64,000 bases of DNA from NCBI GenBank assembly GCA_027491085.1, contig JAIXWW010000011.1:433151-497150 (forward strand), in the 5' to 3' direction. The notes beneath the pieces were generated by a model. The model was not told where the DNA came from and ran no database searches. It worked only from the letters and a program-made list of their open reading frames with translations. A program made the translations under genes and the position numbers. The number at the start of each line of letters is the position of its first letter. Within the stretch, counting starts at the first letter, position 1. Source of the stretch: Bacteroidota bacterium. Its GTDB lineage: Bacteria > Bacteroidota > Bacteroidia > UKL13-3. This document shows positions 10,775-33,951 of this stretch, piece by piece.

Positions 10775-10809
10775 GGCCTCATAGTTCAATGGATAGAATA
10801 GATGTTTCC
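10775..10809 (+). repeat. 35-nt partial copy of the tRNA-Arg(CCT) 5' half (island left boundary, att-like)
   Basis: Exact 35/35 identity with 33861-33895. Identity stops inside the anticodon loop. Confidence 0.8.
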
Positions 10810-13550: not shown

Positions 13551-14000
13551 ATGGAGTTAATTTTTAAAGTTGCAGAGATACAAGTAAAATATAAACCTAG
13601 AAAAAAGTTAGGACCCAAAATAGACGACTCAAACGAAGCCGCCACTATCCTGAGAACACACTATAACCAAGATACCATTCACCTTCAGGAAGAATTCATT
13701 GTTTTATATTTAAACAATGCTTCAAATGTTATAGGAGTTTATAAATCATCCGTAGGAGGAATAAGTTCAACCATAGTTGATATTAGAATCATTTTAGCCG
13801 TAGGGTTGAAACTAGCTTGCTCTTCTATTATTCTATCCCATAATCATCCTTCAGGAAATATGAAGCCTTCAAATGATGATATTAGACTTACCAAAAAAAT
13901 ATACGAAGCAGGAAAAATCCTTGATATCATTATCATAGACCATATCATCATATGCTCCAATTCAAAATATTATAGCCTTGCAGAAAATAATGATTTCTAA
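13551..14000 (+). CDS. RadC-like JAB/MPN domain protein
   Basis: JAMM-type motif ILSHNHPSGNMKPSNDD...DHIII in a 149-aa protein. Family is common on integrative elements. Confidence 0.8.
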   Translation: MELIFKVAEIQVKYKPRKKLGPKIDDSNEAATILRTHYNQDTIHLQEEFIVLYLNNASNVIGVYKSSVGGISSTIVDIRIILAVGLKLACSSIILSHNHPSGNMKPSNDDIRLTKKIYEAGKILDIIIIDHIIICSNSKYYSLAENNDF

Positions 14001-16065: not shown

Positions 16066-16623
16066 ATGAATGCTTTTGAGTTTATCATCAACTATAAAAA
16101 ACTATTATCTATGATTGAGCAAGTGGCTCAACCTCAATTCCTGAAATACACATATAAATTAAGGAAGGAAAAACCTTGGTCTTTAATCAAATCTAATACT
16201 ACTTTCAACTCTGAATTAGAAGCTTTGGGGTTTGTATTTTCAAACGTCTTAAATTTGTTTTATGAGGATTTGAAAAACCTTGATTTTGACGATGATGAAT
16301 TTCTATTGTATGCTGATGATTGGTTTATGCAAGCAATGAACCTTGAATTTGGAAAGTCAAAAAATACCTTAAAGGATAACCCTTTAGTTTGGATAACTGA
16401 TTTATCTAGGGACACAAAAAGAAAGGAATTCAACTTTAAAATTGAAGTGTTTTATGATAAAAAAACTAAATCAGTTAAAAAACTAATGGTATCAGGGTTT
16501 AATAAGAAAACCAAAAAGCTTATAGGGTATTCAACTGCAATATTTTTAGGTGAGAATATTGATGATTTAATAAAAGAAATCAATGATATGGCTATTCTTA
16601 TTTTTAAAGAATATAAACCTTAA
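16066..16623 (+). CDS. hypothetical protein
   Basis: 185-aa ORF, no motif recognised. Confidence 0.35.
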   Translation: MNAFEFIINYKKLLSMIEQVAQPQFLKYTYKLRKEKPWSLIKSNTTFNSELEALGFVFSNVLNLFYEDLKNLDFDDDEFLLYADDWFMQAMNLEFGKSKNTLKDNPLVWITDLSRDTKRKEFNFKIEVFYDKKTKSVKKLMVSGFNKKTKKLIGYSTAIFLGENIDDLIKEINDMAILIFKEYKP

Positions 16624-17306
16624 ATCAATCGTTTAACTATTCCTGGACTAAACTCACAACCATTTCTTGTTTTATAACCATTCTCGTTGAGTAGTCTTGA
16701 TATTTGAGAATAATGAACATAACCATTCTTCATCTTAAAATGTTCAATAAATGTTTTAGCCATTTTCCAATTTGGATTTTCTTCTCTATTTCTTTTAACA
16801 GCAACTCTTCCCTTTGCTTTGGCTTCTTCAGTTAAGTTTTGAGGGGACCCAAGTTTTCGTGTTTTCTTTAATTCCTGTAAAGCACTTTTGGTTCTTTGTG
16901 AGATGAGTTCTCTTTCATATTGTGCCATAGTTCCAAAAATACCTAGCGTTAGTGTATTGAGTTCTGGAAGAGCCAAACAATGAAGTTTAACTCCTCTTCT
17001 ATGAATAGCGAATAAAAACTCTACTTCCCTACTTAATCTATCCAATTTTGTAAATAACAAAACATACCCATTCTTTTCGCATAAGTTAAGGGCTTTATCC
17101 AAACCAGGTCTTTGATTGTTCTTTCCGCTCTCTTGTTCTAAAATAGTATTTACCAACGAACCATTATTCCTTGATATAAAATCTAAAATCTGTGTTTGTT
17201 GTTCTTCTAATCCAAGATTTTGTTTTCCTGTGCTCGTTCTAACATAAGCTATATATTTTTCCATTTTCTGATCCTTTTTGCTAATGTAAGGATCCTTTTT
17301 GAACAA
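16620..17306 (-). CDS. serine recombinase (resolvase/invertase family)
   Basis: N-terminal catalytic domain YVRTSTGKQ (catalytic Ser) and LDRLSRE motif, C-terminal HTH. Likely true start is MEKYIAYV at ~17264. Confidence 0.85.
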   Translation of the reverse strand: MFKKDPYISKKDQKMEKYIAYVRTSTGKQNLGLEEQQTQILDFISRNNGSLVNTILEQESGKNNQRPGLDKALNLCEKNGYVLLFTKLDRLSREVEFLFAIHRRGVKLHCLALPELNTLTLGIFGTMAQYERELISQRTKSALQELKKTRKLGSPQNLTEEAKAKGRVAVKRNREENPNWKMAKTFIEHFKMKNGYVHYSQISRLLNENGYKTRNGCEFSPGIVKRLI

Positions 17307-18203: not shown

Positions 18204-19838
18204 ATGGCAAAAAAAGTAAAATCAGTAAGCATTTCGGATGCTGAATCCAAAAAAGAAAGTGGATTATCGGTTGAAGTCACCAATGAACTTATTATCTCTA
18301 GAGAAGAGGTTAATCCAAACAACAATTTATGCAGTCCCTGTAATTATGAAGGTATTAAACGAATTGAACTTGACAGAGAAATTAAATGGGTAAAAACAAC
18401 AGACTTAAAACCATCATCCCATCACATTGAGATTTATTCCGAAGAGAAGATTTTAGACGATGCTCTTATAAACTCAATAAAAAATAAAGGGATAATTACA
18501 CCTTTATTAATTACTTCTAACCATATTATTATTTCTGGAGTTAGGAGATTTAAAGTAGCACTATTGTTAAATATGGAGGTTGTTCCTGTAATTTACAATA
18601 CCAATGATGAATTAAATGTTGCTGATGTTGTATCCAGTAATATTAGTCGCATAAAAAAATATTCGGTTTTATATAAAGAGTACAAAGTATTAAAAAAAGC
18701 ATACGGCATTAGCCAAGGAACTAGAACAGATTTGGTTCATAAGGGAAAAAAATCTCAGGAAAAAATAAACACTATTTTAGGTGTTTCAAGAGCTACCATT
18801 GCACGACTTTGTAAAATAGAAAGATTAGCCTCTCAATTATTTAATTCAGATACGGAAAAGCTAAATGAAATTTGGTCGCAAGTAGATAATCCCAAAAAAG
18901 GAATAATGGCTGTTTTAAGGTATCTTACCAACATAAAACACGAAAGAAACAATTCAAATGGTGAAGTTGAAAATCTATTTGGAAATGGATATACCATTTA
19001 CAATTCATCATCAGCACTAATGAATGAATTGGATTCTAATACAGTTGATTTACATATTACAAGCCCTCCATATTGGGGCGGAATACGAAATTATAACCTA
19101 GGCGAAAATGAATTAGGTTGGGAAAGTAATGTTGATGATTTTGTAAAAAATCTTGTTGAACATTTTGAAGCTACTAGAAGGGTTTTAAAACCAACAGGTA
19201 GCTTGGTCGTAAATTTAGGTGATAGCGTTGATAAATCAAAAAATCATAATGCTCTAGCTCCATTCAGATTTGCTTTAAAAATGGTAGAAAAAGGTTGGCA
19301 TTTAGCAGGCACTTATATTTGGATGAAGCCAAGATTTACACCTTCAACACCTAAAAACAAACCAATTTCAACTTTTGAAATAATATTTCACTTTGGAAAA
19401 AAACCTCAATATGAATTTTATAAAGATTGGATGTCAAATCCTTCAGATCCAATCTATAATCCGCTGATATTTGGAAAACCAAATAAACCAAAATATTTAA
19501 AAGATATCTTTGATTTACGTGAAATAAATGAAGGGGGAATAATTAAATGGAACAGTTCAAATACAACCGAAATTAATAAGAAATGTAAAGAAAGAGGAAT
19601 AGAACAAAACCACAATGCAACTTTCCCTTTAATGATACCCTCTATTTTTATTAATCTAACTACAAAACCCGGTGATTTAGTTATTGATGGGTTTAATGGA
19701 ACTGCAAGCACAGGAGCTGCTTGTCAAGTATTAGGAAGAAACTACGTGGGATTTGAATTGAATAAGAATTACATATCAGTTTCCAAAGTTAGACTTGAAA
19801 GCATTGAAGAAGAATTAAACAATAAAATGGCAGCTTAA
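18204..19838 (+). CDS. ParB-like nuclease domain fused to DNA methyltransferase (N4-C/N6-A, beta-class-like)
   Basis: N-terminal ParB/Srx motif ISGVRRFKVA. Methyltransferase catalytic motif SPPY (HITSPPYWGG). AdoMet motif VIDGFNGTASTGAA. 544 aa. Confidence 0.85.
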   Translation: MAKKVKSVSISDAESKKESGLSVEVTNELIISREEVNPNNNLCSPCNYEGIKRIELDREIKWVKTTDLKPSSHHIEIYSEEKILDDALINSIKNKGIITPLLITSNHIIISGVRRFKVALLLNMEVVPVIYNTNDELNVADVVSSNISRIKKYSVLYKEYKVLKKAYGISQGTRTDLVHKGKKSQEKINTILGVSRATIARLCKIERLASQLFNSDTEKLNEIWSQVDNPKKGIMAVLRYLTNIKHERNNSNGEVENLFGNGYTIYNSSSALMNELDSNTVDLHITSPPYWGGIRNYNLGENELGWESNVDDFVKNLVEHFEATRRVLKPTGSLVVNLGDSVDKSKNHNALAPFRFALKMVEKGWHLAGTYIWMKPRFTPSTPKNKPISTFEIIFHFGKKPQYEFYKDWMSNPSDPIYNPLIFGKPNKPKYLKDIFDLREINEGGIIKWNSSNTTEINKKCKERGIEQNHNATFPLMIPSIFINLTTKPGDLVIDGFNGTASTGAACQVLGRNYVGFELNKNYISVSKVRLESIEEELNNKMAA

Positions 19839-20194: not shown

Positions 20195-21658
20195 ATGACA
20201 AAAGTATCAATCATCTTAATGCCACAAGGTAAAAACTCTAATACGGGTAGAATTTGTAAAATGATTTCAGAAAAAGGAAAAGTCCACAGGTTATCAATCG
20301 GATATACAATACCAATAGACGACTGGTGTGTTAAAACTAAAAGAGTTAAAAATACCAATTCAAATTCAACAATTATAAATTCAATCATAGAAAATATTAT
20401 GTCGGGAGACGTTACTAAACACAAAAAATATGAAGATTGTATTCTATGCTTTATGGAAAACGAGTTGGAATTAGGTCATTTAGATAAAACAATAAAATAT
20501 AGTACTTACAAAAAGTATAATACTATTGCAAAGTCTTTCAGAAAGGCAATGGTGAAATTGGAAATGCTCAAGATAACAATAAACGATGTTATAGGCCTAG
20601 AAAAACTAAAATCAATAATAAGTATCATCTCTATCAACGAAAGTAGAAATGGCAAAAGAAAAACCACCTTAAATAATTATTTGGTGGTCTTTTCTACATA
20701 TGTAAAAAAATGGTTTCAGAAGAATAACGGAAGTCCAACTGCTGATTTTAGCTTTATTCATAAAGAATCAAAAAAAGTGATACTCGGACACGCCAATTAT
20801 ATTACAAAAGATGAACTTACAATATTTGAAAATTATTATCCCAAAGGTATTAAAAATGGAACTATTCAAACAATTACTAAATCCATCTTTCTTAGCCAAT
20901 ATTATATCGGTGGTATAAGAATAAGCGACATTCTAACCCTTACAAATTCACAATTTAAAGCAAAAGGAATACTTATTAGAATGAGGAAAAATGGAGAAAC
21001 AAGAATCTATCCATATTCATTTGAACTCGTATTGGCATTAAGACCACTTTATCCCTACCAATATAACTCAGTAATTGAAAACTTAAATTTAGGGTCAATA
21101 AAATTACCTGCAACAATTGTAGCTGCAATGATTCGTTCTAATATAGAACTCCACAATTATAACTTAGAAGATATTGATAAAAAGATTAGTCAATTAGAAT
21201 ATTCATTATCACTTGAACACAAACAACTTGTTGATGAACTTGAAAGGTTAAAACAAATAATCAAAGGCTTAATTAAAGAAGAGTTTTTCAAACAAATACA
21301 AAACTTAACCGAAGGTTTTATCTTTCCATTGTTAGAATACGATATGTTCAAAAACCATTTAGATAGACCTGATTTATTTGACAAAGATTTAAGCTATGCA
21401 ATCCATAGAGCTACTTGTAAATATAACTCTAATCTGAAAGTCATTTGTAAAACAATAGGAATTAACCGAAAACTAACAAGTCATTCACCCAGACATTCAA
21501 TAGCTCTTCACTTAATGGAAAGGGGAGCAACCACACCCATCATTCAAGATGTTTTAGGACAAAGGAACCTTTCCTCAACGGCTGTATATCTTCAACAAAG
21601 ATTACCTTCCAATAATATTGGTGTGGGAATGGGATTGATACACGGAAGTAAACTGTAA
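20195..21658 (+). CDS. tyrosine-type site-specific integrase (Bacteroidota type with N-terminal arm-binding domain)
   Basis: C-terminal catalytic region HSPRHSIALHLMERG...LGQRNLSSTAVYLQ (R, HxxR, Tyr nucleophile). N-terminus KVSIILMPQGK is typical of Bacteroidota integrases. Confidence 0.9.
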   Translation: MTKVSIILMPQGKNSNTGRICKMISEKGKVHRLSIGYTIPIDDWCVKTKRVKNTNSNSTIINSIIENIMSGDVTKHKKYEDCILCFMENELELGHLDKTIKYSTYKKYNTIAKSFRKAMVKLEMLKITINDVIGLEKLKSIISIISINESRNGKRKTTLNNYLVVFSTYVKKWFQKNNGSPTADFSFIHKESKKVILGHANYITKDELTIFENYYPKGIKNGTIQTITKSIFLSQYYIGGIRISDILTLTNSQFKAKGILIRMRKNGETRIYPYSFELVLALRPLYPYQYNSVIENLNLGSIKLPATIVAAMIRSNIELHNYNLEDIDKKISQLEYSLSLEHKQLVDELERLKQIIKGLIKEEFFKQIQNLTEGFIFPLLEYDMFKNHLDRPDLFDKDLSYAIHRATCKYNSNLKVICKTIGINRKLTSHSPRHSIALHLMERGATTPIIQDVLGQRNLSSTAVYLQQRLPSNNIGVGMGLIHGSKL

Positions 21659-21682
21659 AACCTATTATAGATTTATAAGTAA
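21601..21682 (+). repeat. direct repeat copy 1 (integrase 3' end)
   Basis: ~82 bp, ~95% identical to 27831-27912. A further 15-bp match (cttcatatcatttga) follows after a 61-bp indel. Confidence 0.8.
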
Positions 21683-22010
21683 ATTAAATTACTGCTTATA
21701 TGATTAATATTCAGGAGAGTGCCTATACTATAGACAAAACTAACTTCATATCATTTGAATCTATGTTATTTTGTTATTTTTGTTATTGAATTTATTATGG
21801 TGCTTGGTTTTGAGGAAGCATTTACATAAAAGTATTTTTTTGAAAGGACGTGTATATGTCCACGTAAATTTGACTTTTTTTTATTGCATAATATATTTGT
21901 CAATGATTTCTCGCAAGTAGTTTTATCGATTTATTGCTAATTACCAAAATCATTAGTAGTGGTAAAACAAATGTTCATTGACATGGAGCCAAAATTTATT
22001 TTTTAGTTGA

Positions 22011-22670
22011 TTGGCGATTTTATTAAAACTAAAAAAGAAAATGAATATAACACAAAAAAGAAGCCCATTAAAATCCCTTTTAACGAATTATGATTTCCGA
22101 CATTATCTTAAAGATGGGAGAGTTAAAAAATTAGTTTGGTATTTGCTAGAGCTTGACAAAAAACAAAATATAGAAATAAATGAAGAAATAATTCTAGAAA
22201 TTTATGATAACTTGACGCATTATAAAACTCAAGAAATCTCAGTTCCAAGATTTGTTTATCATGGAAGTCATAATCTGAACAGAGAATCTATACTTTCAAA
22301 AGGCTTAATTGCATTTGAGAATCGTTGTACAGGAGTTTTTGCAAGTATTCCCAATAGTTTCAATCCAATGGAAGCTTCTCATTTTTATCCCTCAGTTTGT
22401 GGCGATACCGACTTATCTGAATCTAATTTAGATTTTTGGCAGATAGATACATTTCAACTACCCCCATTGACTTGGTTTGTCGACCCATATACACCTTCGC
22501 ATAGAAGCCTATGGATTTTCACATTCAATAATATTCCTCCTTTTGCATTAAAACTATACAAGGCAAAAAGAATTGGAAATTACTTAGACAGGTTTTCATT
22601 ATATCCGATTGAAGATGTAAACAGCGAATTGAAAAAAATAAAAAAGAAGAAAATTGAATTGTATTACTAA
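22011..22670 (+). CDS. putative PARP-like (H-Y-E class) ADP-ribosyltransferase domain protein
   Basis: YHGSHNLNRESILSKGLIAF resembles PARP catalytic [22 protein letters not shown] (H-G-S NAD-binding motif). C-terminal Y..IEDVN..LKK resembles the PARP Glu-containing region. Possible real start at Met 22041. Confidence 0.4.
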   Translation: MAILLKLKKKMNITQKRSPLKSLLTNYDFRHYLKDGRVKKLVWYLLELDKKQNIEINEEIILEIYDNLTHYKTQEISVPRFVYHGSHNLNRESILSKGLIAFENRCTGVFASIPNSFNPMEASHFYPSVCGDTDLSESNLDFWQIDTFQLPPLTWFVDPYTPSHRSLWIFTFNNIPPFALKLYKAKRIGNYLDRFSLYPIEDVNSELKKIKKKKIELYY

Positions 22671-23193
22671 AAAAACAAATAGATATAATATGGAAAATCA
22701 GAAAAACGAAAGAAAAATTTTATATATAGACATGGATGGTGTTCTAGCTGATTTTGAATCATCAATTAAAAGATACTTACCTGAATGGGATAACTTATCT
22801 GATGAAGAAAAGGGAGATAGAACCGATGATATTTGCGGTTCAGTACCAAACTTTTTCCTTGAATTGGAACCTATTCATGGAGCATTAGATGCTGTTAAAA
22901 ACTTAGCAGAATTTTTTGATGTTTACTTTCTATCGGCAGCTATGTGGAATGTGCCTGAAAGTTATACAGAGAAAAGACTTTGGATTGAAAAACATTTTGA
23001 CAGCTCTTTTAGAAAGAAACTAATCCTTACACACAGAAAAAACTTAAACATTGGAGATTACTTAATTGACGATAGGACATCACATGGTGCAGGCGATTTT
23101 ATGGGTGAACACATTCATTTTGGAACCCAAAAATTTCCCAATTGGACAGTAGTTGAAGAATACCTAAGTAAAGTGGTTATGAACAATCAATAA
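22654..23193 (+). CDS. 5'(3')-deoxyribonucleotidase-like HAD hydrolase (NT5C family)
   Basis: HAD motif I IDMDGVLADF (DxD), downstream LIDDR aspartates. Overlaps the upstream ORF. 179 aa. Confidence 0.7.
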   Translation: MNCITKKTNRYNMENQKNERKILYIDMDGVLADFESSIKRYLPEWDNLSDEEKGDRTDDICGSVPNFFLELEPIHGALDAVKNLAEFFDVYFLSAAMWNVPESYTEKRLWIEKHFDSSFRKKLILTHRKNLNIGDYLIDDRTSHGAGDFMGEHIHFGTQKFPNWTVVEEYLSKVVMNNQ

Positions 23194-23205
23194 AAAATAA
23201 ATTAT

Positions 23206-23961
23206 ATGAAAATAATATTTCAGCATCCGCCAACAGGAACTAAAGATCCTTTTAAAGATTTTGAACCGTGGAATCCTCGCCATTATCCGAAAGGCGGGGG
23301 AGTTTATATTTATGGATTAAAATTACATATAGATAATGAGCTAAAATTTGTTCCACTTTATGTTGGGAAACATAATACTAATGTTGGTAGAAGAGTATTT
23401 GAACATTATTATCAGGAAAGAATGCCTGGTAATAGCTGTAAAGAAATATTTGATTTAACCAACATTAAATCATTAGATGATATTAGGACTCTTTATGAAG
23501 CCATGAATAAATATGATAGTGTGAAAGGGAAACCTTTAGTTAGGATTAGTAACGAAAAACTGATTTGGTTTAATGATAAAGATTTCTTTAATACATACAT
23601 TTCAAAAAGCTTAGGTAAATATGTCTCTTTAAGTAATTATATATCAGGTTCTGGTCATCTTGCAAGTTTGTATCCAAAAGTTGGCGATTTTGATTCAATG
23701 ATTTCTAAAGATAAAACCATTTCAGAATATATTGATAACCTTCGCAATAAAATAATAGCTACTAAATCCTTATATAATGAAAATTTCTACTATCTCTATG
23801 TAGATAATATTTCCAGAGAAGATCTTTTAATTTATGAAAATTCAACAAAAATTGCCCTACAAGAGCTTGGAATATTTACAACGGCTTGGGCTAATAAAGA
23901 GGGAAATTCATCAATAATAAACTTTGATGAAATTTTTTCTAAGTTGATAAATCTAAAATAA
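23206..23961 (+). CDS. hypothetical protein with N-terminal GIY-YIG-like motif
   Basis: GGGVYIYGL...PLYVGKHNTNVGRRVFEHY matches the GIY-(10-11)-YIG...R...E pattern. 251 aa. Confidence 0.4.
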   Translation: MKIIFQHPPTGTKDPFKDFEPWNPRHYPKGGGVYIYGLKLHIDNELKFVPLYVGKHNTNVGRRVFEHYYQERMPGNSCKEIFDLTNIKSLDDIRTLYEAMNKYDSVKGKPLVRISNEKLIWFNDKDFFNTYISKSLGKYVSLSNYISGSGHLASLYPKVGDFDSMISKDKTISEYIDNLRNKIIATKSLYNENFYYLYVDNISREDLLIYENSTKIALQELGIFTTAWANKEGNSSIINFDEIFSKLINLK

Positions 23962-24064
23962 ACGTTTAAAGTGATGATGTTGCTTAAAAATCAGTTTGAT
24001 ATTTTAATTTAGAAATTCCAATTAGTAAAAAAAAGACATTTAAATATTTTAAAATACAACATAT

Positions 24065-24973
24065 ATGAAAACTACAAATTTTGAAGAAATCTTAAAGAAA
24101 GTTGAAACCTTATTTAATACTCACCAAATGAACCTAACTGGTACGTCCAACTATGAGGATAAAAGTGGTATTTTTTTCCATAAACTCGAACAAAAAGTTA
24201 TTCCAATTTATTCCCAAGATGAACTTATTAAATTTAAAGAGGGAGAACCATCACCTATTCTAGGTGCTTATTTAATTGAAACAGAATCTAACCCACGCTT
24301 TATGCTCTTTAATGATTCAATAAACGATTTGAGTATAAAATATGCTGATGAAAGGTCAGTCATTAACGGAGTGGATATTAGAAATTCGTCAGGGTTTATT
24401 ACAGCTGAACATCCAGATCCACCAGGCCTTTATCCTGAGGAAGCCAAAAACCGCATTGAAATTATAGTAAAACTTCAACTCCATATTTTTCATACTCTTC
24501 ATTATGCTTTTGGAGCATGGAAAACTCCCTTTTTTACAGAATTAAGCATAAGTTATATAAATAACTTAGTTAATTGTATTACAAAAAGAACTATTAATGA
24601 TGATAAAAATTTACTAGACTGCTACGCCTATATAAACAAAATTCCTGCTGAAGAACTAATTATCGAAAATTATTCTCAATTTTCAAAATATATTTTTGCC
24701 TTTGACCAATCCGATTGGAAGGAGATAGTTAATCTAGGCGTCTTAATTAATAAAATTCCTGAAAGCATTTGGAGTGGTTTTGTTCAAGCAAAACCAAAGG
24801 TAGCATTAAAAGACTATTTGTTAGATCATAAATCAGAAATTCAAGATTCATTTATTAATTGGGCAAAGAATAATACAGATGAACAACCTTTCTCTAAAAT
24901 TAAAGAATATTTAACTATTGAAAATACTGAAAAGTATCGTGGTAGTATAAAAGCAGGAGGATTCGGTATATGA
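24065..24973 (+). CDS. hypothetical protein
   Basis: 302-aa ORF, no motif recognised. Stop overlaps the next start. Confidence 0.4.
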   Translation: MKTTNFEEILKKVETLFNTHQMNLTGTSNYEDKSGIFFHKLEQKVIPIYSQDELIKFKEGEPSPILGAYLIETESNPRFMLFNDSINDLSIKYADERSVINGVDIRNSSGFITAEHPDPPGLYPEEAKNRIEIIVKLQLHIFHTLHYAFGAWKTPFFTELSISYINNLVNCITKRTINDDKNLLDCYAYINKIPAEELIIENYSQFSKYIFAFDQSDWKEIVNLGVLINKIPESIWSGFVQAKPKVALKDYLLDHKSEIQDSFINWAKNNTDEQPFSKIKEYLTIENTEKYRGSIKAGGFGI

Positions 24974-25632
24974 ACTCCCTCACCCTCATAGAACAATCTG
25001 GGTTCAAAATCAATCCACCTAAAATTGTATTTGTGCCATTTACAGAAGAAAAACTTCAAGGGATTAGCACTAGAGAGTTTGGTAGTCCTTACGAAAATAT
25101 GGATGACAAAATTGGTGGCAATTTGTATTTATGGCTGCAACAAACCAATTCTGTTTTATGGCAAATAAGTGATGAACAGGTATTGATTTTTGCAAATACA
25201 GTTGAAAAGTTAGGTGAGCGTTTTGCCACACTAATGAAGTTACCAAAAGAAGAGGGTAAAGCGGTATGTATAGAAATGGTTAAATCCTTAGCCATTTCTA
25301 CTTATATTATTGAAAATAGTATCTTTAAAATACAAGGCAATTGGCTGTTAAAATACCGCAATAAAGAACTAGGGGGTACTCTTCAATACTTCTTGCTTTG
25401 GCTCACCAAACATGAGCTTCAAGGGAATATTCAAGCCAACAAAGCCTTGGATATTTACATCGAAAAATTTGCCAAGAATGTTAATTTGGATTTGTTTAGT
25501 AATTACCCTTCAAGTGAAATTATGGAGGCATTTATTTATTGCTTTTTTAGAGGAAATAACGAAACAAAAATGCTATTTGCTAAACTAGAAAATCCTAACT
25601 ATTCTCTAAATGAACTCATTACTATTCCATAA
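24970..25632 (+). CDS. hypothetical protein
   Basis: 220-aa ORF, translationally coupled to the previous ORF. Confidence 0.4.
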   Translation: MNSLTLIEQSGFKINPPKIVFVPFTEEKLQGISTREFGSPYENMDDKIGGNLYLWLQQTNSVLWQISDEQVLIFANTVEKLGERFATLMKLPKEEGKAVCIEMVKSLAISTYIIENSIFKIQGNWLLKYRNKELGGTLQYFLLWLTKHELQGNIQANKALDIYIEKFAKNVNLDLFSNYPSSEIMEAFIYCFFRGNNETKMLFAKLENPNYSLNELITIP

Positions 25633-26077
25633 TAAAAGCACAATGAATTCAGATAAATGGAAGATTTATGTTAATGGCTATAAAAATGAAATAGACCTAT
25701 ACCATCGTATTGATAGTGATTGGCTAGAAGGGGGTATAAAATTATATTTGGGAAATGAGGAATATAGCATTCCCTTAAGTCTATTATTAGTGGAAGAGTT
25801 ACATGATTTTCTCAATTGGTTAATAAAAAAACAAAGTGGTATTGAAACCATTCCAATTTTTCAATTTATGGATACAGAACTTTGTTTTGAAACAGTTACT
25901 TCAGATAATGAATTTTATTTAAAATTGAATTTAAACAGAATCAATAAAAAGCAAATCTCTATAATATCGCAAATTTCAGGACCTCAGTCGGAAATGCGTT
26001 CAATAATTGAAGAATTAAACTCGCTAATAACTAAATATCCTTGCCGTTGTAACAATCAACATATTATACTTAAATAA
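25610..26077 (+). CDS. hypothetical protein
   Basis: 155-aa ORF overlapping the previous ORF. Ends convergent with the NT5C-like paralog. Confidence 0.35.
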   Translation: MNSLLFHNKSTMNSDKWKIYVNGYKNEIDLYHRIDSDWLEGGIKLYLGNEEYSIPLSLLLVEELHDFLNWLIKKQSGIETIPIFQFMDTELCFETVTSDNEFYLKLNLNRINKKQISIISQISGPQSEMRSIIEELNSLITKYPCRCNNQHIILK

Positions 26078-26618
26078 TAAGTTTCCCTTTATTTTTTGGT
26101 TCAAATGTTTCAGGCCAAAACACTTCATAATTATCAATTAGGTATACCAATACTTTGTCCCAGTCTTTAAACTCCTCACTGCCTAAAGGAATGAGTTCAT
26201 TTATAAATTTATCCGAACCATTATTTCCTTTGCGGTCTATCAAATAATGGCCCACTTGCAAATCTTTTCTGTGGCTTAAAATTAGTTTTTTTCTAAAGTT
26301 TTCTCCAAAGTGATTTTCAACCCAAATTCTCTTATCAGTATACATATTGGGTATATCCCAACAAGGCGCAGAAATAAAATAAATATCGTAAAAATTACTC
26401 AAGCTATTAATGGATTGAATAGCAAGATTGATAGGTGATAGATTTTGATAATAATGAGGGTATTCTAAATATACGTTTTTAAGGGCAACTTCTTTTTCTG
26501 TTTCAAATAAATGCTCCCAATTATTTACTCTTTTCATTACATTATCAGAAAGATCAACCACTATATCGTCAAGTTCTATTAAGAGTAGTTTTTTACGTAA
26601 AGTTACTTTCTTTATCAT
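26070..26618 (-). CDS. NT5C-like HAD paralog, probably catalytically degenerate
   Basis: Clear paralog of 22654-23193 (YFISAPCWDIPNMYTDKRIWVENHF...KKLILSHRKDL versus YFLSAAMWNVPESYTEKRLWIEKHF...KKLILTHRKNL). Motif I is IELDD instead of IDMDG. Confidence 0.6.
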   Translation of the reverse strand: MIKKVTLRKKLLLIELDDIVVDLSDNVMKRVNNWEHLFETEKEVALKNVYLEYPHYYQNLSPINLAIQSINSLSNFYDIYFISAPCWDIPNMYTDKRIWVENHFGENFRKKLILSHRKDLQVGHYLIDRKGNNGSDKFINELIPLGSEEFKDWDKVLVYLIDNYEVFWPETFEPKNKGKLII

Positions 26619-26629
26619 ATGGCTAAGTT

Positions 26630-27187
26630 TTAAAATTTAATAAAGTTTTGCAACCAGATAGTGGCACATTCAAAACGATTTTTAGAATTACCTAAAACTA
26701 CTTTTCTAACTGAAGTGTGAGTTAAGTTGGGGTTCAAGATGTTTGATCTGTGTCCTCTACTTTGTGAAGAGTAATCTATTAAAGCTATTAAGATTGAGGC
26801 TCTAATGCTAGTACCATATGTGATATTTTCACCTATACTTTTGCAAGGGATTTTCAACCATGAATAAGTTCTATCGTGATCCATATCTCTTTTTGTGCTA
26901 TCCGCTAAGTGTTTGTTAGCTTCTTTACGAACTTCCTCAGAGATTTTGTAAGCAGGAAGGGGTTTCATTGAATCCAACAATGGGATAAGTTCCTTGATAG
27001 CTATTTCTCTTTCTGGTGCAAATCTTGTTGAATTTGCGTAAGCTTTAACATATTGAATGTAAGCTTTAGGATTGGTTCTTATCAGGTTGATTTCGTTTAT
27101 GTATGCCAGTTCTTCTGCTGAATGTTGTCCAAAACAACAAATAGGTGCAAAAAAAATAAATATAACTATGTTTCTTATTTTGTCCAT
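26630..27187 (-). CDS. secreted CAP-domain (YkwD-like) protein
   Basis: Signal peptide. SRGHRSNILNPNLTH matches the bacterial CAP/YkwD signature GHR.NILNP. Confidence 0.6.
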   Translation of the reverse strand: MDKIRNIVIFIFFAPICCFGQHSAEELAYINEINLIRTNPKAYIQYVKAYANSTRFAPEREIAIKELIPLLDSMKPLPAYKISEEVRKEANKHLADSTKRDMDHDRTYSWLKIPCKSIGENITYGTSIRASILIALIDYSSQSRGHRSNILNPNLTHTSVRKVVLGNSKNRFECATIWLQNFIKF

Positions 27188-27744
27188 GATCTGTTAAGGT
27201 ATATATGAAAATCAGTATAAATATCCTTTAATAACTTAATATCTCTTCGCAAGGTTCTTTCAGTAACTTGGTTTTCTTCACAATATTTATCTATATCTAA
27301 TTGTCTATTTTTTAACGTAGAAACATATAAATTAATTATTCTTCTATACTTTTGAAGCATTAGGCTTTGCCTATTTGATTGTTGCCGAATAAAATCTTTC
27401 TTATTCATAATTATCTTATCTAAACCCTCCAATTTTTCATTTATTATAATAGTATATTTTTTAATTGAACTATCTAATTTTAAATGAGGTGCTCCAATAA
27501 GGACTATAGATAATTCGTTAATTTGTTCATAGGGTACTATTTGATTAAAGTCTTCCAAAATTTTTTCATTTAGTAAATTAGAATCTACAATTATCAAAAA
27601 TGAAGGAACGGCAATAAAATCTTCAATTTTGGTAACCTCATAGTATTCAATGTCACTTTCTGATTTAATGGTTTTTAACTGTTCAATTAATAACTCATTT
27701 TTACTATAAATAAGGATTGTATTCTCTTTGTTAAATTGATTCAT
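27175..27744 (-). CDS. putative transcriptional regulator (receiver-like N-terminus, C-terminal HTH)
   Basis: C-terminal VTERTLRRDIKLLK resembles a DeoR/HTH_11-type helix-turn-helix. Overlaps the CAP gene by 13 nt. Confidence 0.4.
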   Translation of the reverse strand: MNQFNKENTILIYSKNELLIEQLKTIKSESDIEYYEVTKIEDFIAVPSFLIIVDSNLLNEKILEDFNQIVPYEQINELSIVLIGAPHLKLDSSIKKYTIIINEKLEGLDKIIMNKKDFIRQQSNRQSLMLQKYRRIINLYVSTLKNRQLDIDKYCEENQVTERTLRRDIKLLKDIYTDFHIYLNRSWTK

Positions 27745-27830
27745 ATTTCGAAAATAATGCTATTTTCAATTATTAAAAGTTTATTAGGTCCTATATTTGT
27801 CCATTATACCATTTCATAAACTATTTTTCT

Positions 27831-27927
27831 ATTACCTTCCAACAATATTGGTGTAGGAATGGGGTTGATACACGGAAGTAAACTGTATAACCTATTATAG
27901 ATTTATAAGTAACTTCATATCATTTGA
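27831..27927 (+). repeat. direct repeat copy 2: remnant of an integrase 3' end (no integrase ORF attached)
   Basis: Encodes ...PSNNIGVGMGLIHGSKL, matching the last ~19 codons of the integrase at 20195-21658, then a shared downstream segment. Confidence 0.8.
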
Positions 27928-28094
27928 GTATAAGTTAAACACATCTTTTCTAAAGTTAATTAAACCCTCCGAGGATTGATAATGGAATTCAATGGATTTT
28001 GGATACTTCTTTACTATTTTAGAATCCCTAATCCAATTTCAGAATAAATGTATAGTGAGAAAAGTAAATTCCTAAATTGATTTTAACTGTGTTC

Positions 28095-28562
28095 TTACTT
28101 TTTAATTTCTTTAAAAAGAACATATACAAATTGGTTGTTTTCTGCATCAAATGAAATTAAAAATTCCATTCCATTTATAAAACCAGAAGAAGATTCGTGT
28201 ATTATTTCATTACTTTTAGTAATAATGTCATTTTTCTCTTTTGATTTAGTTTCAGAAGTAACTATCAACAAATCTGTAGTAATATTTGAACCATTAATAA
28301 AATTACTTGCCTGACTTCTTGCTTTAACATTAGCAACCCTGCTCATAATAGATTCACTTGAATATTTTCCTTTATCAAGTATTACAACGGAAATCAAATA
28401 ATTTTTTGTCGCATCATTTAATAATTTTACTCCCTCAAACTTACTTTCTTCGTACATTCTTTTGACATAATTTGCAATGGATTGATTTGACCTAATTGTC
28501 TGTGAAGAAATTTGAGAATTAAACTTAAAAATAAATAAAATTGAAAATACTAAATATCTCAT
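28095..28562 (-). CDS. secreted hypothetical protein
   Basis: Signal peptide. 155 aa. Confidence 0.4.
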   Translation of the reverse strand: MRYLVFSILFIFKFNSQISSQTIRSNQSIANYVKRMYEESKFEGVKLLNDATKNYLISVVILDKGKYSSESIMSRVANVKARSQASNFINGSNITTDLLIVTSETKSKEKNDIITKSNEIIHESSSGFINGMEFLISFDAENNQFVYVLFKEIKK

Positions 28563-28578
28563 AATGTTAAAAAAATAA

Positions 28579-29319
28579 TTAGTATTTTATACAACGAACC
28601 GAAAAACCACATCCTAAATCTTTACCTCTATAATCATCTAATAACCCTTTTTCTTGATCATTAAATAATCTAAAATAACCAGCATACCTATTTCCAATTT
28701 TACTGCTGCTCCACCATATTCCAGTTTTACCATATGTCAAAAAAATTGTATTCTGTATTTTGGAAGTTCCATCCATATTACCATAATGATCAATATGTAA
28801 TCCTGGGAGTGCATTAAAACCAGTACTGTTATAATACTTTTTTGCATAATTAACCTTACTATTTGATTCTATGGCATATTCAGGTAATTCCATTTTTTTA
28901 CCATCCATTAATTTTACTATTTCCCAACCTTCTTTACTTTTTAGTTTAGAACCGTCACCCCCAACTTCATCTATTAATTCCTTCCACTCCTCAATTGAGG
29001 GAACATGCCAACCTTCAGGGGCTAAACCTCTTTTGTCATTCACTGCATACCAGTTATATAGTTTGCCGTATTTTTCATTATTTGTTGGGTCAAAATGTAA
29101 ATAACACCAAGCAGGGGTTTCATCATCATTAGCTTTTTTCCAATCTTCACGTGATTTTGCCTCTGGAATAATATCTCCATTTTTAAAATGGTTTACATCC
29201 AAATTTTTAACCATCCAGACTTGAATACCTATTTTAACGCTGTTATTAATTTCACTTTGCGCAATACTTTTAAATGTTATAGTTAAAAGTATTATACTAA
29301 TTATAATATTTTTTTTCAT
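28579..29319 (-). CDS. Fibrobacter succinogenes major paralogous (Fib_succ_major) domain protein
   Basis: Signal peptide. IGIQVWMVKNLDVNHFKNGD and C-terminal GFSVRCIKY match the Fib_succ_major signature (G.QVWM.eNL ... SVRC). Confidence 0.7.
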   Translation of the reverse strand: MKKNIIISIILLTITFKSIAQSEINNSVKIGIQVWMVKNLDVNHFKNGDIIPEAKSREDWKKANDDETPAWCYLHFDPTNNEKYGKLYNWYAVNDKRGLAPEGWHVPSIEEWKELIDEVGGDGSKLKSKEGWEIVKLMDGKKMELPEYAIESNSKVNYAKKYYNSTGFNALPGLHIDHYGNMDGTSKIQNTIFLTYGKTGIWWSSSKIGNRYAGYFRLFNDQEKGLLDDYRGKDLGCGFSVRCIKY

Positions 29320-29363
29320 TATTTAAGATGTTAACATTAAAGAATATATCAAAAATCCTCAGC

Positions 29364-30515
29364 CTAATCTATTCCAATTGGATAGATTTTAATACTTTCA
29401 ATTCTTTTTATTTTATCCAAGTCTTCGACTCTATAAAAGTTTATAGTCTTCTTTTGTGGTATTGAAAGGTCAATTAGAAAATCAAATGGTTTTGTGAATA
29501 TTATTTTACCCGATTTTAAATTAATAGTTGCTCTATCACTATTGTAGGGTTTAATTATTTTCTGAAAATTATTAATGCCATTATTAAAGCCATCACTAAT
29601 TGAATAAAATGATTTAAAATTATTACTATAAAAATTATTTTCATACCCAACATCTTTTTTGTTTTGAGCGTTTGAATCGTATTTTTTGTATCTAAGAAAA
29701 TTAACAATTGAAAATTTTTCAAAACCATAATCCACTACAGCACTTTTCCTTAATTCATCAAACTCATTCAATTGTTCGTTCAAAATTTTGTTGCAATCCT
29801 TATATAAAATACACTCTATTGAACTTGACTTGTTTAAAGCGATTATATATTCATCGGTTTGAATACCCATACTCTTGTATTCAATTGATTGACTTTTACT
29901 AAGAGACAATGATTTTAAGGAACTAACAATGTAATTTGTAAAGGATTTATAATTTTCTACATTGGGTTGAATTTGAATTTCACAATAAAATCCGCTTACA
30001 AGTATTTTACTCATTTTAAAATCATATTCATAATAATTATTCTTTGTCTTTGATAAGTCTACAACTTTGAAAAGATTTTTTAAAGCCGTTAATGTTGCAC
30101 TTCTATTCAGCTCAATATTTGTAATATTGGAGGCAAAGAGCGAACCGTTTACTTTAACTTCAGAATGACCCTTTTGTTGACAGTATTCAACAATTTTATT
30201 TAATGACACTATTGCTGTTATAGAAACACTATAATTAAATTGGTCAATTAAGTATTCTCCATTAATTTGATAACTTTTAATATTTCCGTTTGATATTGAC
30301 TCAATATTTTCACTAATTAATTCATCATTTATTATTGTTGAACTAGATGTTAAATATGCACCTGAAACTTGTTCAATTGCAGATCTTAATGCTACTCTAA
30401 TAGCATCTTCCTTATTTTTACCTATGGCTGAGGTTTTAATTTCCACTTCATTCCCAGCATTAACACTAAAAGTGAAAAATAATTGAATTAATAAAATAGT
30501 AATTGTTTTTTTCAT
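29364..30515 (-). CDS. secreted hypothetical protein
   Basis: Signal peptide. 383 aa. Tightly spaced with neighbours. Confidence 0.45.
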   Translation of the reverse strand: MKKTITILLIQLFFTFSVNAGNEVEIKTSAIGKNKEDAIRVALRSAIEQVSGAYLTSSSTIINDELISENIESISNGNIKSYQINGEYLIDQFNYSVSITAIVSLNKIVEYCQQKGHSEVKVNGSLFASNITNIELNRSATLTALKNLFKVVDLSKTKNNYYEYDFKMSKILVSGFYCEIQIQPNVENYKSFTNYIVSSLKSLSLSKSQSIEYKSMGIQTDEYIIALNKSSSIECILYKDCNKILNEQLNEFDELRKSAVVDYGFEKFSIVNFLRYKKYDSNAQNKKDVGYENNFYSNNFKSFYSISDGFNNGINNFQKIIKPYNSDRATINLKSGKIIFTKPFDFLIDLSIPQKKTINFYRVEDLDKIKRIESIKIYPIGID

Positions 30516-30533
30516 TGTTTTAAAAATTATAGT

Positions 30534-31514
30534 TTACCAAATAATATTGTATGTGTATCTTGTGGGTTGATTTTTGTAGTATTCAATTGAAATTTCCTTA
30601 TAAGCTTGAATTCTTTTTTGCTCTAAATCATATTCTCTTTCTTTTGAAATTTTCTCAACTTGAATTTTTTCATTATATCTTCTAATTTCCTCTGCTTCAG
30701 CATTTTTTTTATCTAGTGCTACTTTGTTTTGAAAAATTAAAATCAAAGAATCTACTTCATTCATACATTTAGATTCAATATTTATAGAACTTACTATTTG
30801 AAAAATCTCACTTAGAGAATTTTGATTAATTACCCAAATTGATTTTATTTGTTTTAGCTTACTTTCACAATCAAAATCAATCATATTTTGATAAATTTTT
30901 GAACTCAAACTAATACATTTGTTGTGACATTCTAAACATGCATTAGGAACAGAGTTTAACAAATAAATTGCCTCTCTAAAATTATGTTGTAACTCTAAAT
31001 TTGATGCTTCTAGTAAAATTGATTCACAATTATTAGCGTAGTAGTTAATTATTTTTTCCCTTCCCTCTTTAAAAAATAATGTTAAATCCGATGAATTCGT
31101 TTTTAAGTTTTTAAGGGCATTTAGTTGCGCTTTAATTTCTGACTCACCTACACCTTTCAAAGTGAAAGAAATATTTGAATACAATCTATTATCAATGGCA
31201 TCACCTATATAAAATGAAACTATAATTTTAATTGCAATTAATTTTATAGCTCCTGTAATAACTTCTTTATTCAATAAAGTTATTTTATTTGTGAATACAA
31301 ATCTTGGATTAATACTATTACCTGACATACCATTATTTGTTAAAATTGTATTCATTTGATTTGAAAGCATGCCCTTTGCATCCGAGCTTAAATCATTTGA
31401 ATTAATAATGGGATTTAAAATTATTCTGTAAATTTCCGGGTTATTTGATTCATTTTTCTGAGCTTTTAACTCACAGAATTGGATCGATAATAAAAAAACT
31501 ATTAAATATTTCAT
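30534..31514 (-). CDS. secreted hypothetical protein
   Basis: Signal peptide. 326 aa. Coiled-coil-like C-terminus. Confidence 0.45.
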   Translation of the reverse strand: MKYLIVFLLSIQFCELKAQKNESNNPEIYRIILNPIINSNDLSSDAKGMLSNQMNTILTNNGMSGNSINPRFVFTNKITLLNKEVITGAIKLIAIKIIVSFYIGDAIDNRLYSNISFTLKGVGESEIKAQLNALKNLKTNSSDLTLFFKEGREKIINYYANNCESILLEASNLELQHNFREAIYLLNSVPNACLECHNKCISLSSKIYQNMIDFDCESKLKQIKSIWVINQNSLSEIFQIVSSINIESKCMNEVDSLILIFQNKVALDKKNAEAEEIRRYNEKIQVEKISKEREYDLEQKRIQAYKEISIEYYKNQPTRYTYNIIW

Positions 31515-31515
31515 T

Positions 31516-32463
31516 TTATTTTTCTCCTATTACTAAAATTGACTCGCCAAGCCCCCGGATCATCAACTTGCTTGTTATTAAATATGGTTCCTTTTTTAAT
31601 TCTAGCTGTAAACCTCGTAGAAATTTTCTAGCATCTAAAGGTAATCCATCTTTAATAGTAGGTATTCTTACTTGCTCAAAAAGCATGAAATTCTCATTTG
31701 CATCAGTCAAGTTATAAGTACTATTAATTGAATTTTTTGAAACCCATTCTTCAATTATTTGATTAACTTCTTTTCCCCCAATTTCATCTTCTAAATTTTT
31801 ATCCCAATTGTCCCATTTTTTTATCCTAATCACAACCTCTCTTCCATTGATTTGTATATCACTGAAATAGTCTTTCAATTGTTTTAAAAATGGATTTAAG
31901 TTCTTTTTTATGGCATTTTCTAAAATTGTTGCCATAACTTTATTTTCATTCATTTTACATGTGCCACTAGAAACCGCTACTCTTTTACTCGTATATGCGT
32001 CTAAAGCTTCTAATGTAAATGAAATTGAGTTATCTGAATTTAAATTCCACCATATTTGAATAATTAAATCTGCCTTTGCTTGTTTAATGATTTTATCAAG
32101 AGGTGATTCTGAAATATCTGAATTTGATTTTGTACTAGATGTAACCAAATCTTCTCCAGAAATTTTGGATAGATTTTTTATCTCTTGCTCTGCATCTTTT
32201 AATCTAAATCCATTATCAATCATTAATTGACCAATCTTAGAGATTACTAAGCCAATTTCGGTGTCTTCTTGAAATGCTCTTTTATAATCTGGTGTTTTAA
32301 TTGATAAGCCTTGATTTTCAGTTTTTGACATAAAATATCTTTGTTCACACCAATTATCAGAGGGAATCACCATTAAAGTTGGCATTTTGTTTTGACTTAG
32401 AGCTGCAGCTATCCCTAGATGACAAAAAATTAAGAATAGAAATCTTATAAAAAGTAGTTTCAT
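31516..32463 (-). CDS. secreted hypothetical protein
   Basis: Signal peptide. 315 aa. Start is 2 nt from the stop of the downstream gene. Confidence 0.45.
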   Translation of the reverse strand: MKLLFIRFLFLIFCHLGIAAALSQNKMPTLMVIPSDNWCEQRYFMSKTENQGLSIKTPDYKRAFQEDTEIGLVISKIGQLMIDNGFRLKDAEQEIKNLSKISGEDLVTSSTKSNSDISESPLDKIIKQAKADLIIQIWWNLNSDNSISFTLEALDAYTSKRVAVSSGTCKMNENKVMATILENAIKKNLNPFLKQLKDYFSDIQINGREVVIRIKKWDNWDKNLEDEIGGKEVNQIIEEWVSKNSINSTYNLTDANENFMLFEQVRIPTIKDGLPLDARKFLRGLQLELKKEPYLITSKLMIRGLGESILVIGEK

Positions 32464-33639: not shown

Positions 33640-33860
33640 TTATTCAGTTTATTATCAAAACTTTTTATTCGTTTAACTTCCTATCTATTGACACCAAGTC
33701 AAAAACCCCTTATTAATTATTAATGCACCTTACTTAATTTTTTTGCATTCTAGGGTGCAAATTGATTACTTTTGAAGACTAAAATTGCAATAATGCAAGA
33801 AAATTAACTAGATTTGTAAGTAAGTAAATCCATAAATCACTCTTTTTCAAGTTTTTATAT

Positions 33861-33932
33861 GGCCTCATAGTTCAATGGATAGAATAGATGTTTCCTAAAC
33901 ATTTGATATGAGTTCGATTCTCGTTGAGGCTA
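33861..33932 (+). tRNA. tRNA-Arg (anticodon CCT)
   Basis: Manual cloverleaf: acceptor GGCCTCA/TGAGGCT (G1-U wobble), D-stem GTTC/GAAT, anticodon stem GATGT/ACATT with loop TTCCTAA (U33, anticodon CCT, A37), T-loop TTCGATT. Confidence 0.8.
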
Positions 33933-33951
33933 CTATTATTAATTAGAGTAC

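Follow-up and report, generated by a model that had tools for sequence, protein, structure and literature searches.

What is the gene cluster that lies directly behind a tyrosine recombinase gene in an uncultured freshwater Bacteroidia genome, how did it come to be there, and what might it do? The cluster is found in a stretch of DNA of 64,000 nucleotides (nt), hereafter the window, from Bacteroidota bacterium (UKL13-3; GenBank assembly GCA_027491085.1, contig JAIXWW010000011.1, positions 433,151-497,150), and all coordinates below are window-based. A preliminary description of the segment 22011-26618 had listed seven open reading frames (ORFs), among them genes for a PARP-like ADP-ribosyltransferase (ART), an NT5C-type nucleotidase and a GIY-YIG-like protein, as a candidate multi-gene system. 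All seven ORFs are present at the positions and on the strands described. The cluster does not close at 26618 as had been thought, since two further genes (ORF8 and ORF9) are part of the same inserted unit. We found that the segment 21686-27830 is a mobile cassette of about 6.1 kb inserted behind the recombinase gene, and that it holds nine genes in two convergent operons. Its role is probably defense or toxin neutralization.

Insertion of the Cassette Behind a Tyrosine Recombinase Gene

The gene to the left of the cassette (20195-21658, plus strand) encodes a tyrosine recombinase of 487 amino acids (aa) with matches to Pfam Phage_integrase (E = 8e-16) and Arm-DNA-bind_5. The NCBIfam models for XerC/D and integron integrases score it far below their cut-offs (32 bits against a cut-off of 265 and 21 bits against 435 for two integron-integrase models). 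The last 58 nt of this gene lie within a duplicated insertion site: together with the following 27 nt they make up the left copy of an 85-nt direct repeat (21601-21685), and the right copy (27831-27915) is 94% identical to it. The right copy and the continuation of the target site (27831-27937, 107 nt) read like an uninterrupted recombinase 3' end with its downstream site, and they are 90.7% identical to a module-less site in contigs L027-L030. These contigs have a C-terminal remnant (206 aa, 96% nt identity) of the same recombinase between NUDIX and PorP_SprF genes; the sequence is unbroken across the site, matching 27831-27937 of the window, and its likeness to the left copy ends at 21685. 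The repeats and the read-through empty site show that the cassette was inserted some 27 nt beyond the stop codon of the recombinase gene and that 85 nt of the site were duplicated. A JGI contig with the full recombinase, the cassette and then PorP_SprF represents the occupied form of the NUDIX/PorP_SprF site. The remnant has the same length in the four contigs (L027:3266-3886, L029:10001-10621, L028, and L030), and it may be a stable relic that still offers a cassette insertion site.

The segment 21737-27830 recurs in the related loci L001-L006 at 94-99% nt identity, with sharp ends and in at least three other genomic contexts. In L001-L006 the left neighbor is a divergent AAA ATPase and the right neighbors vary; L004 and L005 keep the first 42 nt of the recombinase-3'-end repeat at the right junction of the cassette. 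The cassette carries no recombinase of its own, and it is plausible that the adjacent tyrosine recombinase moves it. A model with one attP x attB crossover located within the 85-nt repeat was considered and rejected: it fits the 42-nt remnant on the right side of L004 and L005 and fails at the left junction, where sequence is shared only from 21737, and a single crossover is likewise too simple for the junctions in the AAA-adjacent contexts. Among the variable positions of the repeat the right copy is nearer to the empty site than the left copy at four out of five, a pattern that would be expected if the cassette had brought with it a replacement for the recombinase 3' end. A seed-limited scan of genome contigs returned no relatives of the recombinase.

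Gene Organization of the Cassette

The plus-strand operon runs from ORF1 to ORF6. ORF1 (22041-22670) likely starts at ATG 22041 (209 aa), the longest ORF beginning at TTG 22011, and ORF2 (22690-23193) likely starts at ATG 22690, with the longest ORF beginning at TTG 22654; the resulting 167 aa is the length of every listed member of the 90% cluster of ORF2. Because these are the probable starts, the ORF1/ORF2 overlap described earlier vanishes: it exists only between the longest TTG-started ORFs, and the ATG starts leave a 19-nt gap. They are followed by ORF3 (23206-23961), ORF4 (24065-24973, 302 aa), ORF5 (24970-25632, 220 aa) and ORF6 (25610-26077), the latter called as 155 aa or as 144 aa from an alternative start at 25643. 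The overlap of ORF4 and ORF5 had been seen correctly, with ATGA at 24970-24973. The minus-strand operon begins with ORF9 (27175-27744), continues with ORF8 (26630-27187) and ends with ORF7 (26070-26618), which is convergent with ORF6. Gene calls from many independent metagenome assemblies include these genes, with near-identical protein products. The ratio of nonsynonymous to synonymous divergence (pN/pS) against the L001/L004 orthologues is 0.00-0.07 for ORF1, 0.24 for ORF2 and about 0.2 for ORF6, as is typical of coding sequence.

No RNA element was found within the cassette by Rfam search, and a scan for sigma-70 promoters and terminators gave counts equal to the shuffled expectation, a result that is uninformative for Bacteroidota. 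A 28-nt direct repeat (75% identical) is present at 21880-21907 and 27780-27807, and both copies contain TATATTTG (21892-21899 and 27792-27799). We take TATATTTG to fit the Bacteroidota -7 promoter consensus TAnnTTTG. The first copy is upstream of ORF1; the second is directed outward at the right end of the cassette, toward the displaced recombinase 3' fragment.

ORF1 Belongs to an ART-Fold Family Without a Pfam Model

ORF1 is an ART-fold protein of a family that has no Pfam model, and it is nearer to the nucleic-acid-directed Tpt1/DarT branch than to PARP. From the original label "PARP-like" the ART fold was therefore retained and the kinship to PARP was dropped in favor of Tpt1/KptA and DarT as the closest groups. 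Single-sequence searches of Pfam and the PDB brought up Tpt1 and PARP at E values of about 0.1-1.5 only (a K-channel T1 match from the same kind of search was discarded as spurious), and a word-indexed search found three close relatives only. An exhaustive HMMER search found 42 remote relatives with a common core at residues ~60-176, and on testing for ART-fold membership ORF1 was placed within the fold. A first structure prediction from four close sequences had been unusable, at a predicted local distance difference test score (pLDDT) of 37, and was superseded by the 43-sequence alignment. H74, G88, W133, I135, W145, D148, and T161 are invariant in the family, and R81, F100, D131, D136, T137, I165, and P166 are near-invariant. 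With respect to the ART catalytic triad (H-Y-[EDQ] or R-S-E), F100 occupies the position of Tyr and D131 and D136 are acidic candidates, the residue equivalence being taken from alignments only; the putative acidic residue lies within a D-x-W-x-IDT motif. The "HGS" motif originally reported for ORF1 does not describe the family: the G is variable, one close relative has HAS, and the consensus is H-x-S.

Against individual profiles, ORF1 scores 12.6 bits with Pfam PTS_2-RNA (PF01885, cut-off 26), which is matched by one of the 43 family members at E = 0.054, and 12 bits with the PARP catalytic domain (PF00644, cut-off 26.7), which is matched by three of the 43 (best E = 0.004). The PARP1 match in the PDB has E = 0.2-0.5. 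The N-terminal region is not conserved in the family, and many members begin just ahead of the H motif. In Tpt1 the N-terminal RNA-binding lobe carries most of the Arg-His-Arg-Arg tetrad. ORF1 is not considered an orthologue of Tpt1/KptA, because it falls below the Pfam cut-off and its family is without a conserved N-terminal lobe. Among the BFVD structures matched by the ORF1 model are many phage proteins, one of them a putative RNA 2'-phosphotransferase, and one distant ORF1 relative is located in a toxin-antitoxin-rich island.

Relatives of ORF1 and ORF3 are small stand-alone proteins, and in the longer ORF1 relatives the ART core is at the N terminus or close to it, away from the C-terminal position of a delivered toxin; a Pfam search found no domain for secretion or trafficking. 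Given this architecture, a candidate origin of ORF1 and ORF3 as orphan C-terminal modules of a secreted polymorphic toxin was rejected as unlikely. Among the family members P0125, P0143, P0151, and P0157, some have two tandem ART-like cores (P0125, 468 aa), and in others (527-645 aa) an ART-like core at the N terminus precedes 300-500 residues of repeated domains of no known family. These layouts hint at a wider architectural diversity of the ART family.

An Intact and a Degenerate NT5C Protein

The identification of ORF2 as an NT5C nucleotidase with intact motifs was borne out by Pfam NT5C (PF06941; E = 8e-15, 55.5 bits with a cut-off of 24.8) and by a match to human cdN (6g2n; E = 4e-17) with the common motif DMDGVLADFE. 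Both HAD motifs, DxDxV (DMDGVLADFE) and DD (LIDD), are present, as in a 5'(3')-deoxyribonucleotidase, and ORF2 also matches phrog_2643 (5'-3' deoxyribonucleotidase) and phrog_420. NT5C enzymes are known for the housekeeping turnover of deoxynucleoside monophosphates (dNMPs).

ORF7 is indeed a degenerate paralog, 37.5% identical to ORF2, with Pfam NT5C at E = 1.4e-7 (32 bits against 24.8). It retains neither the catalytic nucleophile nor the Asp pair of motif IV: the nucleophile Asp is changed to Glu (IELDD) and LIDD is changed to LIDR, the same in all close relatives. Because all close relatives share both changes, ORF7 appears to be a conserved pseudo-enzyme and not a decaying gene.

ORF3 and ORF4 Are Exchanged as a Pair

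ORF3 is the conserved anchor of the cluster family and was found in every related cluster type at 30-57% identity. Its family has the invariant motif GVYIYG...KFxPLxVG...R...HY, followed by E...TK and TTA. This motif resembles GIY-YIG, and the GIY-YIG proposal for ORF3 is backed by it and by one sub-threshold Pfam match: ORF3 itself has no Pfam match, and one of 11 relatives matches PF01541 (E = 6.5e-4). A profile search of the PDB with ORF3 found nothing, and hhalign comparison to I-TevI and UvrC, with the two sequences entered by hand, placed the motifs in register at a non-significant probability of 1-3%. ORF4 has no match in Pfam, the PDB or PADLOC, and its only relatives are at least 82% identical.

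The two genes form a polymorphic segment that comprises ORF3 from about codon 39 and all of ORF4 (23321-24961). This segment has no nt similarity to L004-L006, and its flanks are 98.6% and 91-99% identical. L004-L006 have in its place an ORF3 homologue of 283 aa, which shares the first ~37 residues and is 33% identical, and an unrelated gene of 137 or 139 aa; the ORF3 body and ORF4 have been exchanged as one block between backbones of 91-99% identity. Within one allele type, too, ORF3 and ORF4 are the most diverged genes (91-94% nt identity vs. 97-99% for the others). The partner next to ORF3 is of at least three unrelated types, which are the 302-aa ORF4 type, a type of 137-157 aa and a type of 244-351 aa. 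Joint replacement of an enzyme-like gene and its downstream neighbor is seen in effector/immunity and toxin/antitoxin pairs, and by analogy the co-swap of ORF3 and ORF4 may reflect a pair of this kind.

ORF5, ORF6, ORF8, and ORF9

The last three genes of the plus operon had been described as unknown, which holds for ORF4 and ORF5 and not for ORF6. ORF5 has no family match in Pfam or among PDB sequences, and comparison of ORF4, ORF5 and ORF6 to PDB sequences gave nothing meaningful; homologues of ORF5 (45-49% identical) are directly upstream of WapI-like genes in L014 and L017. ORF6 is a full-length match to the WapI-like immunity family PF24716 (profile positions 6-138 of 138; E = 3.5e-12, 47.2 bits with a cut-off of 27), and the same model matches its orthologues and the homologues in L007, L014, and L017. 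No Rhs/WapA or other delivery-domain protein was found in the cassette or the related loci.

Besides this immunity-family protein, a secreted protein and a regulator had been overlooked. ORF8 is CAP/YkwD-like (Pfam CAP, E = 1.8e-4, above the cut-off) with a signal-like hydrophobic stretch at the N terminus, and its homologues (36-38% identical) adjoin relatives of ORF1 or ORF3 in L007, L009, L014, and L017. ORF9 (189 aa) is a putative regulator with weak C-terminal HTH_11/DeoR-type matches of the helix-turn-helix (HTH) class; its L007 homologue matches HTH_11 at E = 8.8e-7, and homologues are also present in L014 and L017. A tandem duplication is present at the right end of the cassette in L004 (6857-8765) and L001 (13947-15843), with a second, 61%-identical CAP-like gene and a 61-aa piece of the HTH protein ahead of the regular CAP and HTH genes.

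Related Loci and Their Distribution

Distant relatives of ORF1 (39-45% identical) and ORF3 (30-57%) were traced to their contigs. The recurrent set consists of a CAP-like gene (29-38% identity), ORF3, the variable partner, ORF5 (45-49%), a WapI-like gene (23-37%) and a convergent HTH gene (22-29%). The order CAP-ORF3-partner-ORF5-WapI with the convergent HTH gene is kept at 22-57% identity, with genes that overlap or abut. The head genes differ from locus to locus: ART and NT5C in the window type, ART alone in L007, a truncated ART in L017, cpYpsA/SLOG in L014, and in L009-L011 an ART with a NADAR gene on the opposite strand, the only locus type with NADAR. NT5C is found beside ORF1 relatives only in the window type. 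The trio of ART, NT5C and GIY-YIG-like genes named in the preliminary description is not the conserved core, because what persists in divergent loci is ORF3 with its adjacent variable partner, usually together with CAP, ORF5, WapI-like and HTH genes, and the ART and NT5C genes are an exchangeable head. The loci that are most distant have kept only ORF3 and a partner, sometimes beside PcfJ-like proteins. The truncated ART-like first gene of L017 (7759-8229, 156 aa) is without the N-terminal H-motif half and starts close to the D-x-W-x-IDT strand; either this head gene is decaying or its start was mis-called.

Genes for WYL, PDDEXK, Fic, and PIN proteins are close to the related loci. An IetA-like AAA ATPase adjoins two divergent cluster types (L004:296-1957, minus strand, and L014:940-2394, plus strand; PADLOC E = 3e-31 and 2e-25), in both without the IetS protease partner; it could be a part of an extended system or a co-localized defense gene. 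PcfJ-like proteins, a family of conjugative elements, were noticed near distant ORF3 relatives (L021:3459-5213 and L026:2880-4562; PF14284, E = 2e-17 and 2e-15), and they suggest that some versions of the ORF3 module ride on DNA of the conjugative-element type.

The ORF3 family is rare: a scan of 185,579 species representatives found it in one contig, which is L004, from a Bacteroidia metagenome-assembled genome of Lake Mendota. Relatives of ORF1 and ORF3 were absent from the IMG/VR viral contigs and from 50,697 phage records. The genes move as one unit, and no PADLOC model, sequenced phage or viral contig matches them. A prophage nucleotide-metabolism module was also considered as an identity of the cluster and was rejected, there being no phage structural or replication genes in the surrounding island and no phage matches.

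The Surrounding Genomic Island

The recombinase gene and the cassette are located in a low-GC genomic island of about 23 kb at tRNA-Arg(CCT) (10768-33933). The view of a nested mobile module was correct, with the inner insertion 21686-27830 inside this outer island. The island is bordered by 42-nt direct repeats (10768-10809 and 33854-33895); the right copy overlaps tRNA-Arg(CCT) (33861-33933), and the duplicated sequence is the 5' half of the tRNA, with the intact tRNA downstream of the island. The GC content is 25-31% within the island and 31-38% outside, and housekeeping genes are present on both flanks. Apart from the cassette, the island carries genes for RadC (13551-14000), a serine resolvase (16620-17306, minus strand), a fusion of ParB_N and an N6/N4 methyltransferase (18204-19838) and the tyrosine recombinase. 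No genes for conjugation, phage structure or phage replication were recognized in it. To the right of the cassette, still inside the island, is a run of minus-strand genes for predicted secreted proteins and lipoproteins that are unrelated to the cassette (28095-32463), including Fib_succ_major (28579-29319), DUF6175 (31516-32463; E = 7e-94) and several of no known family.

Discussion

The cassette shares features with several known systems. DarTG consists of the ART DarT and a DarG protein with a macro or NADAR domain, whereas the cassette has no macro or NADAR gene and no DarTG match in PADLOC; ORF1 further differs from DarT in having Phe for Tyr and an acidic residue in D-x-W-x-IDT, and in being part of a nine-gene cassette. 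Integron cassettes likewise have a promoter-proximal recombination site beside a tyrosine recombinase and recombinase-less cargo bounded by site repeats, but here the recombinase, which is no IntI, is encoded in the same direction as the cargo, attC-like hairpins are absent, and the duplicated site includes the 3' coding end of the recombinase. As with nucleotide-depleting enzymes (dCTP deaminase, dGTPase) and the NT5C-type nucleotidases of phages, ORF2 could drain the supply of deoxynucleoside triphosphates; unlike the depleting enzymes, ORF2 is predicted to dephosphorylate monophosphates, and it has a conserved dead paralog on the opposite strand. PADLOC lists no defense role for NT5C, and no named system or paper describing the gene combination was found in PADLOC (2023) or the open-access literature. 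The ART family, the active/dead NT5C pair and the insertion into the 3' end of the recombinase's own gene are descriptively new, and the general kind of locus, in which an island holds a mobile cassette for conflict or immunity, is already known.

We tentatively read the cassette, with somewhat less than even confidence, as a toxin/antidote-type conflict system that operates inside the cell, in the manner of abortive infection or addiction. This reading follows from the mobility, the combination of toxin-type folds with an immunity-type protein, the pairwise diversification, the packed and conserved synteny and the island contexts. The cassette would be a non-autonomous mobile unit whose plus operon may be read as enzyme/partner pairs: ORF1 as a new ART-fold enzyme followed by ORF2 as a predicted active dNMP 5'(3')-nucleotidase, ORF3, possibly a nuclease of the GIY-YIG type, with ORF4 as the partner that is swapped along with it, and ORF5 followed by ORF6 as a putative WapI-like toxin-neutralizing protein. 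The minus operon would provide the HTH regulator, a secreted CAP-like protein and a predicted catalytically dead NT5C paralog. The harmful effectors, with nucleic acids or nucleotides as targets, would be ORF3 and perhaps also ORF1 and ORF5. Restraint of these effectors or processing of their products would fall to ORF4, ORF6 and perhaps the NT5C proteins, and the ORF3/ORF4 pair would diversify under antagonistic selection. We infer the toxicity, the neutralization pairings, the trigger and the recombinase-driven movement, and likewise a function in phage defense, from the sequences and their neighborhoods.

Several findings weigh against this proposal. Three of the nine cassette proteins have no detectable homology, and at the sequence level ORF4 and ORF5 appear related to nothing known. 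A secreted CAP-like protein in the conserved core is unusual for intracellular defense or a toxin-antitoxin system. The ORF1 family has Phe where H-Y-E ARTs have Tyr, which makes its use of NAD+ putative, and the role of ORF1 as a toxin is weakened because its relatives are without a consistent antidote-type neighbor. The nuclease identity of ORF3 is putative as well. A scan of PADLOC-DB v2.0.0 with ORF1-ORF7 and ORF9 gave no credible match; the sole match was of ORF2 to a TIR effector model (E = 0.0074, 13.1 bits). Finally, all of the loci are metagenomic, and L001-L006, the nearest of them, do not count as independent from the window.

A bolder reading and three rival explanations were also weighed. 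In the bolder reading the cassette would belong to an undescribed family of mobile multi-gene immune systems in Bacteroidota, in which swappable NAD+/ADP-ribose or nucleotide heads (a new minimal KptA/DarT-like ART with active/dead NT5C, cpYpsA SLOG, NADAR) would make or process a nucleotide-derived signal or modification. The signal would control ORF3, as an effector in rapid diversification, and the partner cognate to it; a protein of the WapI fold would be the inhibitor inside the cell, and the cassette would move by inserting at the 3' end of tyrosine recombinase genes. We regard this elaborate scheme as possible and rather doubtful. An island of orphan immunity or protective genes, in which each gene independently neutralizes the toxin of a competitor, is unlikely. 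ORF6 would then block a WapA-type tRNase, CAP would act as periplasmic immunity, and NT5C, NADAR and SLOG proteins would reverse or destroy toxin products. Such loci are represented by rAID-1, the recombinase-associated "acquired interbacterial defense" arrays of Bacteroidales, defined by a 5' XerD-like recombinase at least 44% identical to BF9343_RS08045 and at least two co-directional downstream genes with a GC content of at most 41%, with repetitive intergenic sequences and genes mostly of immunity families (10.1101/471110), and by polyimmunity loci, for which XerC/D adjacency has been noted. The cassette resembles them in that it is mobile and variable in content, even between near-identical strains, and in that directly 3' of the stop codon of a tyrosine recombinase gene it has six co-directional genes at 29-31% GC, including the WapI-like ORF6; the signal-like N terminus of ORF8 also fits. 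In a genome that is low in GC throughout, however, the GC criterion has no power to discriminate. Unlike in these loci, the cassette proteins are mostly enzymes or of unassigned families, with an immunity-family signature in one of nine genes only, and ORF1 and ORF2 have the look of functioning enzymes that are strongly constrained by purifying selection. Gene order is kept in distant relatives at 22-57% identity with overlapping genes, which is unlike free assortment, and most cassette contexts have no adjacent recombinase. A search for repeats brought up the flanking site duplication and no repeated intergenic motif inside the array, and the host is a freshwater Bacteroidia, not one of the gut Bacteroidales.

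It is more improbable still that the cassette is counter-defense or repair cargo, with which the element or its host survives nuclease- or ADP-ribose-based immunity. Healing or processing of RNA and ADP-ribose products would be the task of a KptA-like ART together with a HAD phosphatase, and of NADAR or SLOG in the sister loci, and the WapI-like protein would inhibit a tRNase-type effector of the host. KptA, NADAR, SLOG and HAD phosphatases take part in viral RNA repair and the processing of ADP-ribose derivatives, and KptA-type ARTs, NADAR, YpsA-type SLOG and HAD 5'-nucleotidases are parts of an NAD+/ADP-ribose conflict network (PMC9503650). The families of the cassette and its sister loci match these, and the phage matches of the ORF1 model in BFVD, the PcfJ-like neighbors of ORF3 relatives, and the RadC and ParB-methyltransferase fusion genes of the island point in the same direction. 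Against it, the viral and phage collections contain no relatives, the island has no recognizable conjugation or phage genes, the Tpt1 N-terminal lobe is not conserved in ORF1, ORF2 is of the dNMP type and not an end-healing phosphatase, there is no ligase, and the ORF3/ORF4 polymorphism is left unexplained. We give an equally low probability to the absence of any conflict role, that is, to an accessory set (nucleotide salvage, secreted CAP, regulator and hypothetical proteins) hitch-hiking in a recombination hotspot without a joint function. The housekeeping roles of NT5C, the three proteins without homology and the lack of defense-database matches would agree with such a set. It does not account for the synteny of unrelated families in divergent loci, the exchange of ORF3 and ORF4 as a pair, the enrichment of toxin-type folds with an immunity-family protein, or the repeated placement in mobile or defense-like islands.

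To our knowledge, the defense repertoire of uncultured freshwater Bacteroidia is poorly covered in existing defense databases. Should the cassette prove to work as a conflict system, its contribution would be a new ART family that is closest to enzymes ADP-ribosylating nucleic-acid phosphates and bases, a first defense-type role for an NT5C nucleotidase controlled by a dead paralog, and an intracellular use of the WapI-type immunity fold, and its polymorphic effector/partner pair could be mined for specificity determinants. The mode of insertion, with a recombinase-less cassette, duplication of a recombinase 3' end and a matching empty site, may explain how cargo builds up beside recombinase genes in Bacteroidota, including rAID-like arrays.

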